NCBI GenBank assembly: GCA_035948775.1
Contig: DASZIV010000114.1
Coordinates: forward strand, 130,263-194,262
Reading direction: 5' to 3'
DNA length: 64,000 bases
Source: Bryobacteraceae bacterium
GTDB taxonomy: Bacteria; Acidobacteriota; Terriglobia; Bryobacterales; Bryobacteraceae
Shown: piece after piece, positions 57,165 through 63,193 of the stretch
Position numbering within the stretch: the stretch's first letter is position 1
Layout of the letters: the number at the start of each line of letters is the position of its first letter
Translations under genes and position numbers: made by a program
The notes under the pieces: generated by a model
Databases searched by the model: none
Seen by the model: the letters and a program-made list of their open reading frames with translations, nothing else
What the model was told of the DNA's origin: nothing

Positions 57165-57965
57165 TCACCGCACGACCAATCCCTGCCCCGTCGGCAACGA
57201 CAGCACCTCCGCCCTTAACTCGCGTACTGTCTCGTCAATCTTCTCCTTCTGATACCGGTGCTCGTGATTCGCGTAATCGTCAAATAGCACCAGCGCGCCT
57301 GGAGAGAGCCGCGGCCAGAAATGCATAAGCGCGGCGCACTCCGGATACGCGCTATTCATATCAATGTGCAGAAAAGCCACGCGCGGGATCTCCAACGTGG
57401 CCAGGATCTCGGGAACTGGGCCGCGGACGATCACCGCGTTCGGCCACTCCGCGAAGTTCGCACGCACGCGTTTCACGTCCGTCACGTAGGAGCCCCGCTC
57501 GAGCAGTTCTTTCGTCAGGCCGGCCTTTCCCTGCTTCAGTTCCTCCGCTGAAAATTGTTCCACCACTGGCCCCGAAAAAGTATCGATCAGATAGAATTTG
57601 CGCGGCACGCCCGCCCAATCGAGGCAGTGCATGATGGCGGAGCTGACGAACCCAGCGTTGACCCCGCACTCGACGAAATCGCCAGGACTCCGCAAGGCAG
57701 TAGCAGCGGCCCATAGAGCCACATGAACGCGCCACTCCATGCCGGGGTCGACGCCCCAACTCGCTTGGATGCCCCGCGTGTACGCCTTCCGAAACTGGGG
57801 ATCACGCCGGAAGTCGGCGTTGTGCACGGTGAACAGGCCATCCTGGGCGTAATGCCGCTTCACATCAAAACGGAGACAACCGATGCGCGCTAATGCGGGG
57901 TCCAGCACGCGCCGGATTCTGGTTCGCACGCGTTTGGGGAGAAACGTCGCCAGCCTGCCCATCAT
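57165..57965 (-). CDS. TylF/MycF-like class I SAM-dependent methyltransferase
   Basis: 'GDFVECGVNAGFVSS', 'FYLIDTFSG', 'VAFLHIDMNSAYPECAALMHFWPRLSPGALVLFDDY'. Confidence 0.75.
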   Translation of the reverse strand: MMGRLATFLPKRVRTRIRRVLDPALARIGCLRFDVKRHYAQDGLFTVHNADFRRDPQFRKAYTRGIQASWGVDPGMEWRVHVALWAAATALRSPGDFVECGVNAGFVSSAIMHCLDWAGVPRKFYLIDTFSGPVVEQFSAEELKQGKAGLTKELLERGSYVTDVKRVRANFAEWPNAVIVRGPVPEILATLEIPRVAFLHIDMNSAYPECAALMHFWPRLSPGALVLFDDYANHEHRYQKEKIDETVRELRAEVLSLPTGQGLVVR

Positions 57966-58064: not shown

Positions 58065-58318
58065 CGAGAAAGCCAGTATATAGAATTGGCGGAAGAAACG
58101 GTGGGGTAGGCGTTAGATTGCCGAAAACAGAGCGGGCTCAAGCATGCCCCACCGCTAGAGGTACTAGGAAAATTCTCGGTGTTGGCCTGCAAGAAAAGCA
58201 TCGCAAAGAAAGCACCTCCGTGTATACTCTCTGCTATTCTCAGTCATTCGGAGTCCCGGAAATAGAGGGCTGGGCGAATAATTCAAGCAAGCGATGAATC
58301 CCAAAAGGAGTAAGTGAC

Positions 58319-59419
58319 TTGAGTATGGTGGCGATGGTGCTGACTGTGTTGAGCGTGCTCTTGGCGAGCGTCAGCATCTGGTTCGGATTGTGTCTCGCGA
58401 TGCAGAACGGGCGACTCCTGATTCGGATCGAGTCTCTCGAAGCCATCCTGTTTGCGAAGCCGGGCAGCATTGGCCTGGCGCCTGGGTCCACGCTGGGTGA
58501 CTTCTCTCTTCCTCTCGTCAGCAGCGGCGGCACCATGACACTGTCGCAATGGCGAGGCAAGAAAGTCGTGCTGATCTTCACTCGCCTCGGGTGCCACCAC
58601 TCCGAGCAGATGTTGCCACAGTTGAGCGTTGCCTTGGCAAACGCAAAGCCTGGCGGCCCGGTTCCGTTGGTCATCTCAATGGGCGATCTGGCCGGGAGCC
58701 AGCGATTATTCGAACGCCATCCGATCACCTGCCCCGTGCTTTCCGATGAGGAATCCGAAACGGTCCGGCACTACCGTGTGGCCGTCACACCGATGGCCTT
58801 GGTAGTGGACGAACGAGGCGCGGTCGAAGGCAACGTGGTGATCGGAACGGCGGCAATTCTTGACCTGTTTCGTGAGGGAACGGCCCGTGGCGAGCAGTCA
58901 GCCGAAGACTACTCGAAGGTCTCCTCTTCCTTGTCGCGCAGCAAGCTCGTGCGGGACGGGCTGAAGGCAGGCACCACGGCTCCGGAGTTCCGTTTGCCCA
59001 CTCTCACAGACGGACAGGATATTGCGCTCGCCGACTTGCAAGGCCGGCCGCTGCTCCTGGTGTTTTCGGATCCCAATTGCGGGCCCTGCCAGCAACTGGC
59101 TCCCAAGCTCGAAGAGGTACACCAAAGTTCGCCCGATCTACAGCTCGTCATGATCAGCCGCGGCGACCGCGACGTGAATCGGGAGAAAGCTACCAAAGGC
59201 GGCGTGACTTTTCCTGTGGCGTTACAGGCCCATTGGGAAGTTTCGAAGGCTTATGGCATGTTCGCCACACCAAGCGGGTATTTGGTGGATGAACATGGCG
59301 TTCTGGCCAGCGATGTGGCAGTGGGCGGAGATGCCATTCTCCGTCTGGTGGCGCAACGCCAGGCTGGCGGAAGTCAACCAGGGGCGGAGCCGCAGGTTCC
59401 GGCCGCACTGAACACATAG
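58319..59419 (+). CDS. membrane-anchored protein with two TlpA/ResA-like thioredoxin-fold domains (MauD-like N-terminus; CxxS + CxxC)
   Basis: RBS 'aaggag' lies 8 nt before TTG 58319. TM segment 'MVLTVLSVLLASVSIWFGLCLAM' is followed by 'QNGRLLIRIESLE'. Domain 1 has 'VVLIFTRLGCHHSEQMLPQL'. Domain 2 has 'LLLVFSDPNCGPCQQLAPKL' and 'FATPSGYLVDEHG'. Confidence 0.8.
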   Translation: MSMVAMVLTVLSVLLASVSIWFGLCLAMQNGRLLIRIESLEAILFAKPGSIGLAPGSTLGDFSLPLVSSGGTMTLSQWRGKKVVLIFTRLGCHHSEQMLPQLSVALANAKPGGPVPLVISMGDLAGSQRLFERHPITCPVLSDEESETVRHYRVAVTPMALVVDERGAVEGNVVIGTAAILDLFREGTARGEQSAEDYSKVSSSLSRSKLVRDGLKAGTTAPEFRLPTLTDGQDIALADLQGRPLLLVFSDPNCGPCQQLAPKLEEVHQSSPDLQLVMISRGDRDVNREKATKGGVTFPVALQAHWEVSKAYGMFATPSGYLVDEHGVLASDVAVGGDAILRLVAQRQAGGSQPGAEPQVPAALNT

Positions 59420-59447: not shown

Positions 59448-59756
59448 ATGAACAAGACGCTTGATGATTTCGCAAAGGGTTTGGCGAGTGGCATGTCGCG
59501 CCGTAGCGCTTTCTTGAAACTTTTGGGGGGAGCGGGAGCTCTCGGATTTCTAAGTCTTCGGCAAGCGAAGGCCGGGGCGAAGCTTCCTAAGCTTAAGTTT
59601 CCGAAGGATCCTGCCCAGTGCGAGAGTTTCTGTCTGAACTATGCGGACGAGGTCTATCTTGAGTGCGCCTTCGGCTCCAAAAAGGAGAATGCCTGCTTCG
59701 AACTGCAGAATCTCACCTATTTAGAATGCACGTACGAGTGTACGAATCGGCCGTAA
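59448..59756 (+). CDS. Tat-signal cysteine-rich mini-protein, paralogue 1 (102 aa, 6 Cys)
   Basis: 'MSRRSAFLKLLGGAGALGFLSLRQAKA' twin-arginine signal. The mature part follows C-x3-C-x10-C-x9-C-x10-C-x3-C. Confidence 0.8.
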   Translation: MNKTLDDFAKGLASGMSRRSAFLKLLGGAGALGFLSLRQAKAGAKLPKLKFPKDPAQCESFCLNYADEVYLECAFGSKKENACFELQNLTYLECTYECTNRP

Positions 59757-59924: not shown

Positions 59925-60218
59925 ATGAACAAGACGATTGATGATTTCTCAAAGAGTTTAGCGGGCGGCATGTCGCGCCGCGGCGCTTTCTTGAAGCTTC
60001 TGGGGGGCGCGGGAGTCCTGGGATTTCTAGGTGTGCAGAAAGCCAAGGCGAGCGAGTTCCCCAAGAATAAAGCCCTGTGCTCGAGTTACTGCCTTAACCT
60101 CGCGGATGAGGAATATCTCTTCTGCATGCTTTGCAACCCAAAGGATCAGAACGAATGTTTCGAACAACAGAATATCGACTATTTAAAATGCGCGTACGAG
60201 TGCGCGAATAGCAAGTAA
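59925..60218 (+). CDS. Tat-signal cysteine-rich mini-protein, paralogue 2 (97 aa, 7 Cys)
   Basis: RBS 'gggag'. 'MSRRGAFLKLLGGAGVLGFLGVQKAKA'. Same 6-Cys core plus one extra Cys. Confidence 0.8.
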   Translation: MNKTIDDFSKSLAGGMSRRGAFLKLLGGAGVLGFLGVQKAKASEFPKNKALCSSYCLNLADEEYLFCMLCNPKDQNECFEQQNIDYLKCAYECANSK

Positions 60219-60365: not shown

Positions 60366-60701
60366 ATGGACAAAACGCTGGACGATTTCTCAAAGAGTTT
60401 GGCCGGAAGTATGTCCCGGCGTAGCGCGTTTTTGAAACTCCTGGCTGGAGCAGGAGCGTTCGGATTTCTAGGACTGCGGAAAACGAAGGCCGGGACGTCC
60501 AAGCCTCCCAAGTTCGTATTTCCGAAAAATCCCGCGCTGTGCGAGAGTTACTGCTTGACCTACGCGGATGAAGTGTATTTAGAGTGCGCCTTCAACAAAC
60601 CGAAGGAGGCCAGCCTGTGCTTCGAAAAACAGAACCTTGCTTATCTAGACTGTATGTACGAGTGTGAGTGCTATACCAGCAAGACGTGCGACCTCGGGTG
60701 A
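60366..60701 (+). CDS. Tat-signal cysteine-rich mini-protein, paralogue 3 (111 aa, 8 Cys)
   Basis: RBS 'aagga'. 'MSRRSAFLKLLAGAGAFGFLGLRKTKA'. Same 6-Cys core plus the 'CECYTSKTC' tail. Confidence 0.8.
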   Translation: MDKTLDDFSKSLAGSMSRRSAFLKLLAGAGAFGFLGLRKTKAGTSKPPKFVFPKNPALCESYCLTYADEVYLECAFNKPKEASLCFEKQNLAYLDCMYECECYTSKTCDLG

Positions 60702-61058: not shown

Positions 61059-61664
61059 ATGCGTAAGTTTTTCCAACTAATGATGGGCGTAGCACTGCTC
61101 TCGACGGCAGCCCTCGCTCAAGGAATTGGCCCCGATGATGCGCTGCAGGTGCGGTATGCCGCTAACCTGGGAGCGGGTCAATCGGTGATCGACATGACGA
61201 ACGTGGGAACGCAGGGCGGGAATGACGCTACTGACTACATCTGCGCGAACGTGTATGTGTTCGCCCAGGATCAACAGCTCATTTCGTGCTGCACCTGCCC
61301 GTTGAGCCCCAACGATCTGAAGACGCTGTCCGTTCAGAACGATCTCATCAACAACACGCTGACTCCTGGCGTGCCGACTGGCGTGACCATCGCGCTGGTT
61401 GCTACTGACGATTCTGGCCCCGCGACCTGCAATGCCGCCGTTCCGGGCTCTTTGGTTTCCGGTCTGCGCGCTTGGGGTACCACTCTCCATGCTGCACCGG
61501 GTGGTGGGTTCTTCGGAACCGAGACTGCTTTCTCTCATGCTCCCCTGAGCATCTCGGAATACGGCAAGATGACTGGCTTCTGCGCCTTCATCCAAGCCGA
61601 TGGTAGCAAGTTCGGTATCTGCAATTCCTGCTCGCCGGGTGCGGCTGGCGCCCAGAAGCAGTAA
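61059..61664 (+). CDS. secreted 201-aa cysteine-rich protein (8 Cys), unknown family
   Basis: RBS 'ggagg' lies 8 nt before the ATG at 61059. Sec signal 'MRKFFQLMMGVALLSTAALAQG'. Cys clusters 'SCCTCP' and 'CNSCSP'. The upstream extension of the track ORF has no signal peptide and spans the direct repeats. Confidence 0.75.
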   Translation: MRKFFQLMMGVALLSTAALAQGIGPDDALQVRYAANLGAGQSVIDMTNVGTQGGNDATDYICANVYVFAQDQQLISCCTCPLSPNDLKTLSVQNDLINNTLTPGVPTGVTIALVATDDSGPATCNAAVPGSLVSGLRAWGTTLHAAPGGGFFGTETAFSHAPLSISEYGKMTGFCAFIQADGSKFGICNSCSPGAAGAQKQ

Positions 61665-61693: not shown

Positions 61694-61736
61694 ATCGGGT
61701 AGCCGGCCGAAACGCCGGTTACCCGATTAGTTTTTT
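61694..61736 (+). terminator. rho-independent terminator closing the 58319-61664 gene string
   Basis: A 14-bp stem atcgggtagccggc/gccggttacccgat (one G-U pair) with a 6-nt loop, followed by 'tagtttttt'. Confidence 0.8.
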
Positions 61737-61936: not shown

Positions 61937-63193
61937 CTACCTTCCCAGCGAGGAACAATCGTAGGAGAGTTCCTTGTCCGGCGCAAACAGTACACCGGTC
62001 TGTTTAATAGCCAGCTTCGCTTCCGAAGGATCATGTGCATAGGCACAAATATATCGCGCAAGATTCTTGTAGATCCGTGGTTCGGGGTAAAAGGGAACGT
62101 TGAGTTCGCTTATGGACCACTCCATTAACTTTATGGCGTTGGTACCAGGTTTGTCCGTCACGTATACGTGCTGCAAGATATATTTTGGCAAACGGTCGGC
62201 CAGGGAATTCGTTACGTAGATGCTGGGGGTGTTTCTTGTCCCGGAATAGAGGGCCGAGGATAAGTATCCGTCCCACAGATTGAAGAAACTCAAGACTGGC
62301 GCGAGCGCAAAGAGCAACAAGATCACTTTCTGATAGCGCCCTCCGTCAGACCATACGATTTCGCGGGCAGATAGTCTCGGCCGCTGCCAGAAGAGGGTCG
62401 TCACGAAACAAAGCATGGCAACGTTCCATGGCCACACGACGCTGTTCCAGTCCTTGCCTAGCGGGCCAATGGCCCACAGAATGAAAGCATGCATTCCGAA
62501 AGCGGCGAAAATCGCCCAAGTCCGGAACCGGCGTGTCAGCAGGCCGATTCCGATGCCTGCCTCAATGAAGGGGGCCACCATCGCCAGCCAGTTGAAGCCC
62601 GGCACGATGGAAGCGGGGAGCAGGTGCGTGATCGGCTTCGTAAGCTCGTGGAAGACATAAGTCCGGAAACCCGGTTGTAGCTTCTGCAGGCCGCTCCAGA
62701 AATAAGTGCAGGCCACGGCAAGGCGACACGCGTTCAGCGCCGGGTTATGGATGTCATCATGGCCGCCCCGCGAGTAGTCATATAGGCCCAAAGCAATGAG
62801 CATTACCAAATACTGATAGAACCACGGCTGCCAGCGCGACTGATCCAACAGTGCAAGGGCGATTGCGAATAGGGAAAACAATCCGATTAACTTGGCGGGT
62901 CGGGTAACCACCGCTATGGCCGCCAACATGGCCAAGACCACTGCGAAGATCAGATGATCGAGGGGAACCGGAATCGATAGGGAGAACGGCCACACCGGAG
63001 TGGCCGGATAAGAGCGGTCACTCAGCCAAAGCGCAGGCGAGAGCACCATGCCGGCGAATAAGCCGCCTACGATGATGATCTTCAAGCGGCGTTCTGTCGC
63101 CGAAGGCCGGGTAAACTCTTGCTTAGGGAGCTCCGCCGCAGCCCTGGTGGGCTTCTTGCTAAGTGGTAAGTTCTTGGTTAATGGTGAGCCCAT
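61937..63193 (-). CDS. 9-TM integral membrane protein with DoxX/MauE/HTTM-like helix motif and a ~110-aa C-terminal soluble domain
   Basis: Hydrophobicity pattern. 'ACTYFWSGLQKLQPGF' resembles the conserved G-x-x-K helix of DoxX/MauE/HTTM-type membrane proteins. The family assignment is tentative. Confidence 0.7.
   Translation of the reverse strand: MGSPLTKNLPLSKKPTRAAAELPKQEFTRPSATERRLKIIIVGGLFAGMVLSPALWLSDRSYPATPVWPFSLSIPVPLDHLIFAVVLAMLAAIAVVTRPAKLIGLFSLFAIALALLDQSRWQPWFYQYLVMLIALGLYDYSRGGHDDIHNPALNACRLAVACTYFWSGLQKLQPGFRTYVFHELTKPITHLLPASIVPGFNWLAMVAPFIEAGIGIGLLTRRFRTWAIFAAFGMHAFILWAIGPLGKDWNSVVWPWNVAMLCFVTTLFWQRPRLSAREIVWSDGGRYQKVILLLFALAPVLSFFNLWDGYLSSALYSGTRNTPSIYVTNSLADRLPKYILQHVYVTDKPGTNAIKLMEWSISELNVPFYPEPRIYKNLARYICAYAHDPSEAKLAIKQTGVLFAPDKELSYDCSSLGR

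Follow-up and report, generated by a model that had tools for sequence, protein, structure and literature searches.

A membrane-anchored tandem thioredoxin-fold protein encoded beside cysteine-rich proteins with a MauA-type leader: a probable dedicated folding enzyme in a Bryobacteraceae bacterium

The closest described parallel to the system presented here is found in the methylamine utilisation (mau) gene clusters. There MauA, from which the six-disulfide small subunit of methylamine dehydrogenase is made, is encoded directly after MauD, a membrane-anchored protein with a single thioredoxin-fold domain of about 200 amino acids (aa). We describe a gene of related design at positions 58319–59419 (+ strand) of a 64,000-nucleotide (nt) stretch of DNA from a Bryobacteraceae bacterium (assembly GCA_035948775.1, contig DASZIV010000114.1, positions 130,263 to 194,262 of the forward strand), hereafter the window. 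Its product, hereafter the enzyme, carries two thioredoxin folds in tandem behind a MauD-like anchor and is encoded next to small cysteine-rich proteins bearing a MauA-type leader. With a probability of roughly 0.6, and judging from sequence and predicted structure, we consider the enzyme to be a thiol-disulfide oxidoreductase of the MauD lineage and a dedicated catalyst of oxidative folding for these adjacent, leader-marked proteins.

Other known systems share individual traits with it. Proteins of the ResA/StoA/TlpA/CcmG type likewise possess an N-terminal membrane anchor, the same fold in each domain, a CxPC site, and a cis-proline loop, but they are single-domain proteins with a positively charged N-terminal tail, whereas the enzyme is a tandem protein with an uncharged tail. 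They work in the maturation of cytochrome c, spores, or copper proteins, and no such genes are seen near the enzyme. Protein disulfide isomerase (PDI) and DsbC resemble the enzyme in having two catalytic thioredoxin-type sites per functional unit; it differs from them, however, in lacking b/b′ substrate-binding or dimerisation domains, and the likeness is therefore one of logic and not of membership. A dedicated arrangement is known from the sunA operon of Bacillus subtilis SPbeta, in which the thiol-disulfide oxidoreductases BdbA and BdbB, together with a glycosyltransferase, serve sublancin, a small secreted peptide that forms a disulfide-stapled helical hairpin. Glycosyltransferases are also encoded at related enzyme loci, among them that of the second copy in this genome. 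Compared by description only, the sublancin system departs from the present one in its double-glycine leader and ATP-binding cassette export, as opposed to the twin-arginine leader found here, and in having no tandem thioredoxin protein.

The enzyme gene, read from the window sequence, is an open reading frame (ORF) encoding 366 aa. It begins with a TTG codon 8 nt downstream of a Shine–Dalgarno-like GGAG (58307–58310, +), and a public protein of 99% identity has the identical start, matching this assignment. All of its features lie on the + strand. A single transmembrane (TM) helix (residues 4–27; 58328–58399) is the sole hydropathy segment and falls inside a continuous helix that AlphaFold2 predicts for residues 3–44; the juxtamembrane motif QNGRLLIRIESLE (residues 29–41; 58403–58441), delimited in the family alignment, comes next. 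Domain 1 (residues ~50–188; 58466–58882) holds the active-site motif C92-H-H-S95 (58592–58603) within GCHHS (residues 91–95; 58589–58603), and T157-P158 (58787–58792) occupies its cis-proline-loop position. A flexible linker, with a predicted local distance difference test (pLDDT) score below 50 and a length that varies in the alignment (residues 191–209; 58889–58945), leads to domain 2 (residues ~210–345; 58946–59353). The latter contains C254-G-P-C257 (59078–59089) within the invariant block VFSDPxCxPC, as well as T317-P318 (59267–59272) at the cis-proline-loop position. Domain 2 therefore has both a CxxC site and a cis-proline loop, whereas the CHHS of domain 1 lacks the second cysteine. 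The sequence-only reading, which preceded this work and drew on the letters alone, had proposed one TM helix, the motif that follows it, and two TlpA-like domains, with GCHHS in the first and CGPC in the second; hydropathy, Pfam, and AlphaFold2 bear out this layout, and both motifs are found at residues 91–95 and 254–257.

Profile and structure comparisons agree on the fold. Pfam AhpC-TSA (PF00578) matches two stretches of the enzyme at 110.5 bits (cut-off 26; E 6.4e-32), and Pfam Redoxin likewise matches two. The AlphaFold2 model, computed from a 38-sequence alignment, has a mean pLDDT of 87.6 and shows two confident thioredoxin folds separated by the disordered linker. For each domain, the closest PDB structures found by Foldseek and profile search are ResA, DsbE, Etrx2, StoA, SdbA, DsbF, and TlpA—all of them extracytoplasmic thiol-disulfide oxidoreductases—with an E of 1.3e-11 and a TM-score to target of 0.85 for ResA (1su9/1st9). 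The two domains share 28% identity over 128 residues with CHHS aligned to CGPC, and the tandem is thus taken to have arisen by internal duplication of the thioredoxin fold.

Downstream of the enzyme gene, on the same strand, a profile hidden Markov model (HMM) of the leader identifies three genes for presumed substrates. The first (59448–59756) encodes 102 aa with 6 cysteines, of which the first ~42 aa form a MauA-type twin-arginine leader; the second (59925–60218) and third (60366–60701) encode paralogues of 97 aa with 7 cysteines and 111 aa with 8 cysteines, respectively, and carry the same type of leader. The ATG of the first gene at 59448 confirms the 28-nt spacing reported earlier. No Pfam or NCBIfam name was found for any of the three mini-proteins. 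The second of them contains CMLC, and its odd cysteine might stay free or bond intermolecularly.

The leader HMM was built, with iteration, on the first ~44 residues of proteins encoded downstream of enzyme genes, and it contained no MauA. It yields the consensus MxxxFDELxKxLAxGxSRRxAL, after which come a hydrophobic stretch and an AxA-like site; RR is invariant among 30 diverse leaders. These features mark the leader as a predicted twin-arginine signal with an unusual conserved n-region. The Tat-signal model TIGR01409 exceeds its cut-off in one relative only (17.8 versus 16.7 bits). TatC is encoded in the window's genome, and export of the neighbours by the twin-arginine translocation (Tat) pathway is predicted.

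Pairing of enzyme and leader genes is a conserved trait. It was assessed at 80 loci, the window included, on contigs from one genome per species; these span Acidobacteriota, Planctomycetota, Chloroflexota, Verrucomicrobiota, Gemmatimonadota, Myxococcota, Methylomirabilota, and Caballeronia, at least eight bacterial phyla in all. A leader-bearing gene adjoins the enzyme gene in 71 of the 78 informative loci (>90%). It lies on the same strand, −60 to +400 nt after the enzyme stop, in 63 loci; arrays of three to nine leader genes stand just upstream on the same strand in 6, mainly in Verrucomicrobiota; and the leader gene is divergent in 2, convergent in 1, and elsewhere in the locus in 1. None was found in 5 loci, and in a further 2 the contig left no room for one. 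Counted after the leader, cysteines number 12 in the median and up to 96 in the 113 leader-bearing proteins; at least 4 are present in 101 of them, and the count is even in 97 (86%). Their mature parts are of many unrelated types, some matching MXAN_6577-like or Stig1-like cysteine-rich modules and most matching nothing. Within the window's own 6.1-megabase genome, the leader HMM finds exactly four ORFs, all beside the two enzyme copies (three here and one on contig C197). Among 150 other Acidobacteriota genomes, a full-length leader occurs in one only, where it adjoins that genome's strong enzyme homologue; two further weak matches cover just the generic RR and hydrophobic part.

No further gene family is common to all the loci. 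A consistent link of homologues to cytochrome c maturation, which the sequence-only reading had named as speaking against itself, does not appear: the recurrent gene clusters near the enzyme, assessed by their first ~90 residues and by a few Pfam scans, include none that looked cytochrome-c-maturation- or Sco-like. The same reading held that the enzyme serves the adjacent cysteine-rich products, and the conserved gene neighbourhood together with the MauA-type leader argues strongly that it does. Two nearby genes of the window, encoding an 8-cysteine protein (61062–61664) and a TylF-like methyltransferase (57165–57965), were considered as further parts of the system and rejected, no relatives having been found at the other loci.

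The leader also ties these loci to MauA. Eight genuine MauD genes (L089–L096), scoring 233–354 bits on the MauD model TIGR02661, were retrieved, and in all eight mau clusters the leader HMM matches the MauA precursor encoded directly after MauD (E 2e-9 to 4e-6), aligning MauA DKLFERLSRRTAQQVSRRNFL to the n-region and RR core. Since the HMM was built without MauA, the eight matches make the enzyme and its leader-bearing cysteine-rich protein a parallel to MauD and MauA; the MauD gene, like the enzyme gene, is immediately followed by one for a small exported protein that is rich in disulfides and matches the same leader profile. Outside the leader, by contrast, the enzyme's neighbours are very diverse and unrelated to MauA. 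The MauD-type anchor layout that had been proposed is evident too: all eight true MauDs show a short N-terminal tail that is uncharged or acidic and free of lysine and arginine, a TM helix, and VRQ[IV]G[IV]LHER, so that Q-x-G-x-L-x-x-R is common to MauD (VRQIGILHERVAP) and the enzyme (MQNGRLLIRIE). An anchor-only HMM was tried as proof of anchor homology and discarded, for its matches (E 9e-5 to 9e-3, in a very small database) are weak and composition-driven; the likeness of the anchors is thus one of shared motif only.

By the curated test, however, the enzyme is not a MauD. Its best NCBIfam matches are ResA, MauD, and StoA, each far below its cut-off; hence, of the family comparison suggested earlier, the Redoxin/AhpC-TSA part holds, and the MauD part does not, TIGR02661 giving 56.7 bits (E 2e-15) against a cut-off of 188.6 and 200–354 bits for true MauDs. 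The best-matching stretch aligns residues 210–330 to profile positions 41–160, and MauD is about equally similar to domains 1 and 2 (43–44 bits each). There are, moreover, two thioredoxin domains in place of one, and the active sites are CHHS and CGPC as opposed to CPxC. The mau cluster includes mauE, mauA, and mauB; no adjacent MauE is detected by HMM beside the enzyme gene, and the ORFs of the window locus, on which no dedicated MauB or MauG models were run, showed nothing that resembled either gene. On these grounds, the enzyme is classed as a variant of the MauD kind.

When 5.8 billion proteins were searched, 595 matches emerged among the 8,000 candidates scored; they point to a family of more than 590 proteins that has no name. 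Nearly all of the best 120 homologues listed are full-length two-domain proteins of ~360 aa, and most are either unnamed or called 'peroxiredoxin', the label that JGI attaches to many members. The longer homologues P0112, P0088, and P0100 were considered as clues to topology and set aside, their N-terminal extensions looking like miscalled starts. Conservation is strongest in domain 2, with 24 invariant columns in the family alignment against 8 in the faster-evolving domain 1. C92, T157-P158, the block VFSDPxCxPC, and P318 are invariant, T317 is invariant or nearly so, and the juxtamembrane motif varies hardly at all at Q29, N30, G31, R32, R36, and E41. The distribution of the enzyme is patchy, with strong matches in 2 of 151 Acidobacteriota genomes (the window's genome and one of the 150 others).

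The two active sites differ in constancy. Domain 2 reads CxPC in all 152 scorable members. Domain 1 always retains the first cysteine and reads CxxC in 129 of 159 members (81%), most commonly as CGFC, and CxxS in 28 (18%). The CxxS forms occur mostly in Terriglobia, in which domain 1 often reads CxHC or CxHS. The second enzyme copy in the window's genome, on contig C197, has CLHS and CKPC; given this paralogue and the 28 CxxS members, Ser95 is not a sequencing slip. The sequence-only reading had seen a PDI-like arrangement in the combination of CxxS and CxxC. As a design of the family this does not hold: with CxxC in 81% of members, the CxxS of domain 1 is a minority variant of certain lineages, and PDI-type b/b′ domains are lacking. 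The PDI domain model (pdi_dom) scores 22.3 bits against a cut-off of 107.2, and AlphaFold2 shows only the helix and two catalytic-type domains.

Natural fusions point to a source of oxidising power. In three Acidobacteriota genomes, the family profile matches the anchor and both domains inside open frames of ~490–513 aa. The copy in genome G378 (L097:1069–2541, +) is a 490-aa fusion in which MauE is joined, by way of a fifth TM helix, to a pair of thioredoxin domains (CRPC and CGYC) that are collinear with domains 1 and 2 of the enzyme; its MauE part (Pfam E 1.3e-24) has DCHC between TM3 and TM4 and continues into TM4 and TM5. Matches of similar extent lie in frames of ~491–492 aa in genomes G414 and G426, the G414 match containing one TAG stop, and of these the G378 copy was the one read. 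This natural joining of MauE to a double thioredoxin suggests MauE-type enzymes as a source of oxidising power for the family. In E. coli, MauE proteins can stand in for DsbB by means of their CxC site (bioRxiv 10.64898/2026.03.05.709764). The enzyme itself, unlike the fusions, is neither joined to MauE nor encoded beside it. Its genome encodes a MauE with DCGCF (contig C29), a MauE–thioredoxin fusion with CSC and CLHC (C197), a VKOR protein, and a DsbD-type protein, and the enzyme probably plugs into whichever general redox enzyme a genome has.

One candidate for a conserved redox partner lies within the window itself, a MauE/DoxX-like protein of 418 aa (61937–63193, − strand) with weak matches to Pfam MauE (E 1.4e-6) and DoxX. 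It was rejected: it has no CxC motif, is missed by the true-MauE HMM, and has no relative near the enzyme at 80 other loci. It is a multi-pass protein with a C-terminal soluble part of about 110 aa.

In the mechanism that we favour, the precursors would be exported by the Tat pathway. Both thioredoxin domains, tethered by the helix at the outer face of the cytoplasmic membrane, would then act on the cysteine-rich mature parts, making and reshuffling disulfides in the neighbouring proteins. Domain 2 (CGPC here) would be the redox-cycling site, passing electrons to or from a general redox enzyme of the membrane whose gene lies elsewhere. In domain 1, the invariant first cysteine would attack substrate cysteines or disulfides, and the faster divergence of this domain would be expected if it adapts to its clients. 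In PDI, CxxS variants retain isomerase activity, whereas oxidase activity is lost. As CHHS cannot form a disulfide of its own, domain 1 of the enzyme would act only via mixed disulfides, which matches the behaviour of these PDI variants; that behaviour also fits the invariance of the first cysteine alone. Such a domain may serve as isomerase or holder, with its mixed disulfides resolved either by substrate thiols or by domain 2.

Several observations weigh against this interpretation. The mutual arrangement of the domains is uncertain in the AlphaFold2 model (predicted TM-score 0.50). Twelve of the 113 leader-bearing proteins have only 0–2 cysteines, among them S1-protease-like proteins and one that is proline-rich. 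No redox partner gene lies nearby, the true-MauE HMM finding nothing within 6 kilobases (kb) of the enzyme in any of 82 loci; a clear MauE is present in only 6 of 11 enzyme-carrying genomes, and the idea of obligatory co-occurrence was dropped for this reason. Both the CGPC site and the TlpA family are usually associated with reduction, so net oxidation can only be presumed. Finally, by a simple positive-inside rule the thioredoxin domains would lie in the cytoplasm, an outcome that the sequence-only reading had also named as counting against itself.

This last point bears on an alternative in which the enzyme has its N terminus outside and faces the cytoplasm, where, in the manner of a Tat proofreading chaperone, it would bind the conserved n-region of the Tat leader at the membrane before export and hold, reduce, or pre-fold the cysteine-rich precursor until hand-over to the translocase. 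The charge bias behind it is strong and runs through the family: the N-terminal tail is free of lysine and arginine in 86 of 96 members, and the 15 residues after the TM helix hold at least two such residues in 94 of 96. The system-specific part of the leader, FDELxKxLA, stays on the cytoplasmic side and strictly co-occurs with the enzyme. Tat carries folded proteins, the Tat chaperone HyaE has a thioredoxin fold, and the glycosyltransferases found at some loci (those beside the C197 copy included) have no visible signal peptide, as would fit modification before export. We nevertheless regard this alternative as unlikely. The same charge rule would also place the CxC loop of MauE in the cytoplasm, with 11 positive charges against 1 by manual count in the L097 sequence. 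That loop must face the periplasm, because MauE replaces DsbB in E. coli, oxidising periplasmic DsbA or its substrates (bioRxiv 10.64898/2026.03.05.709764); a rule that misplaces it looks unreliable for the Mau group. For the MauD anchors of L089–L096, as for the MauE of L097, the rule predicts cytoplasmic redox parts, at odds with the published complementation of DsbB. In L097 the chain crosses the membrane twice between the CxC loop and the thioredoxin domains, which puts both parts on the same side. From the MauE fusions and the published function of MauE, a periplasmic location of the enzyme domains appears favoured by about three to one. It is also the extracytoplasmic side on which the closest solved structures all belong, and no cytoplasmic oxidant is evident.

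The typical chemistry of the TlpA/ResA family raises a different alternative. Its members are reductants, and the CGPC of domain 2 is the motif of thioredoxin itself; the enzyme could accordingly be a periplasmic reductant that is kept reduced by a DsbD/CcdA-type protein and in turn keeps the cysteines of its neighbours reduced, or reduces them anew, for example for metal binding or some other modification. One DsbD_TM protein is encoded in the window's genome, and the presence of a clear MauE in just about half of the carrier genomes checked would agree with such a role. The neighbours themselves, however, look like disulfide-bonded proteins, with their prevalence of even cysteine counts and with up to 96 cysteines in Stig1/MXAN_6577-type repeats, which are typical modules of disulfide-rich exoproteins. 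Fusion to MauE, an oxidase, exists in nature, and a protein with six disulfides depends on MauD, the enzyme's nearest functional relative. A reductive role thus seems quite improbable to us.

That the enzyme is a general housekeeping protein in a coincidental neighbourhood—a ResA/CcmG-like reductant that helps to assemble cytochrome c or copper centres, as its best NCBIfam match (ResA) might suggest, or a peroxiredoxin, as the JGI names and the inclusion of peroxiredoxins in Pfam AhpC-TSA might suggest—can be put aside as very improbable, given the 83.7 bits on ResA (NF002854) against a 170-bit cut-off, recurrent neighbours that, on their first ~90 residues and a few Pfam scans, did not look ccm-, res-, ccdA-, or Sco-like, sites that on inspection of the alignment read [FV]xxPxCxxC/S with proline two residues before the cysteine and show no PxxxTxxC, PrxQ/BCP scores of 21–22 bits against cut-offs of 140–260, the patchy distribution, and the pairing with leader genes.

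If the enzyme is instead a dedicated folding catalyst, the leader may do more than direct export. The extended n-region (FDELxKxLA before SRR) might be a recognition tag that couples Tat export to a MauD-type anchored oxidoreductase, in a sortase-like pairing of which MauD and MauA would be one specialised case; recognition of the leader would fall to the anchor helix or to domain 1. We put this forward as a tentative and rather doubtful proposal. Were it true, hundreds of mutually unrelated disulfide-rich exoproteins, from at least eight phyla, would be served by a widespread 'leader plus foldase' module. No description of the tandem family or of its pairing with the leader was found in the literature searched. 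The nearest items in it are the MauE preprint cited above and a report that, in Streptomyces, mauE/mauD homologues stand beside precursors with at least 8 cysteines (PMC7794033).

The folding of secreted proteins with multiple disulfides is incompletely understood, above all in phyla that lack the textbook DsbA/DsbB/DsbC set, and the family described here may represent a large, unnamed, and easily recognised class of dedicated folding enzymes. The MauA-type leader would act as a sequence tag by which clients can be predicted directly from genomes, and the natural series of CxxC and CxxS forms could be used for probing the role of each site. MauD would be recast as a member of a general module and not as a helper specific to methylamine, which fits the recent finding of MauE as a general DsbB-like oxidase. 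The pairing also bears on a puzzle, namely that the disulfide-rich small subunit of methylamine dehydrogenase travels by Tat, a route normally taken by folded proteins. In practical terms, enzyme–client pairs could aid the production of disulfide-rich mini-proteins.

Some loci add glycosyltransferases to the pair. In Acidobacteriota and Chloroflexota, genes for GT2, GT4-like, and Anp1 (PF03452) glycosyltransferases follow the leader gene (L001, L003, L004, L010, L015, L017–L019, L026, L063, and L072; at about 7.1–11.5 kb of each locus), and no signal peptide was noticed in these glycosyltransferases. Their position suggests that the small cysteine-rich proteins may be glycosylated, recalling glycocin-type peptides. 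The second copy of the system in the window's genome (C197:61610–66981) belongs here: its tandem enzyme gene (63625–64776, − strand) is divergent from a gene (65042–65383) for a 113-aa leader-bearing protein with 8 cysteines, and the pair is flanked by glycosyltransferase-like genes, encoding a GT4-like protein of 691 aa, an Anp1-like fragment, and a GT4 protein. The window copy is without glycosyltransferases. Between 58319 and 61664, the window contains only weak terminator-like matches of 5–7 pairs; the best-formed terminator-like site found on the + strand beyond the gene string is a strong hairpin at 61694–61727 (14 pairs and a T-run).

Other lineages surround the pair differently. The upstream arrays of three to nine leader genes occur at L060, L061, L065, L067, L075, and L078, in Verrucomicrobiota and Myxococcota, and include S1-protease-like proteins of about 305–320 aa with 1–2 cysteines. 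At L063, the neighbour has no cysteine and is proline-rich, and domain 1 of the enzyme reads CVFS. In Planctomycetota (L022, L025, L027, L030, L039, L045, L046, L053, L054, and L064; at about 0.1–5.9 kb, upstream of the enzyme), the enzyme gene follows, on the same strand, genes for an extracytoplasmic function sigma factor (PF07638) and a large WD40/TPR-repeat Ser/Thr kinase, and is itself followed by one to three genes for Stig1/MXAN_6577-like proteins with 25–46 cysteines.

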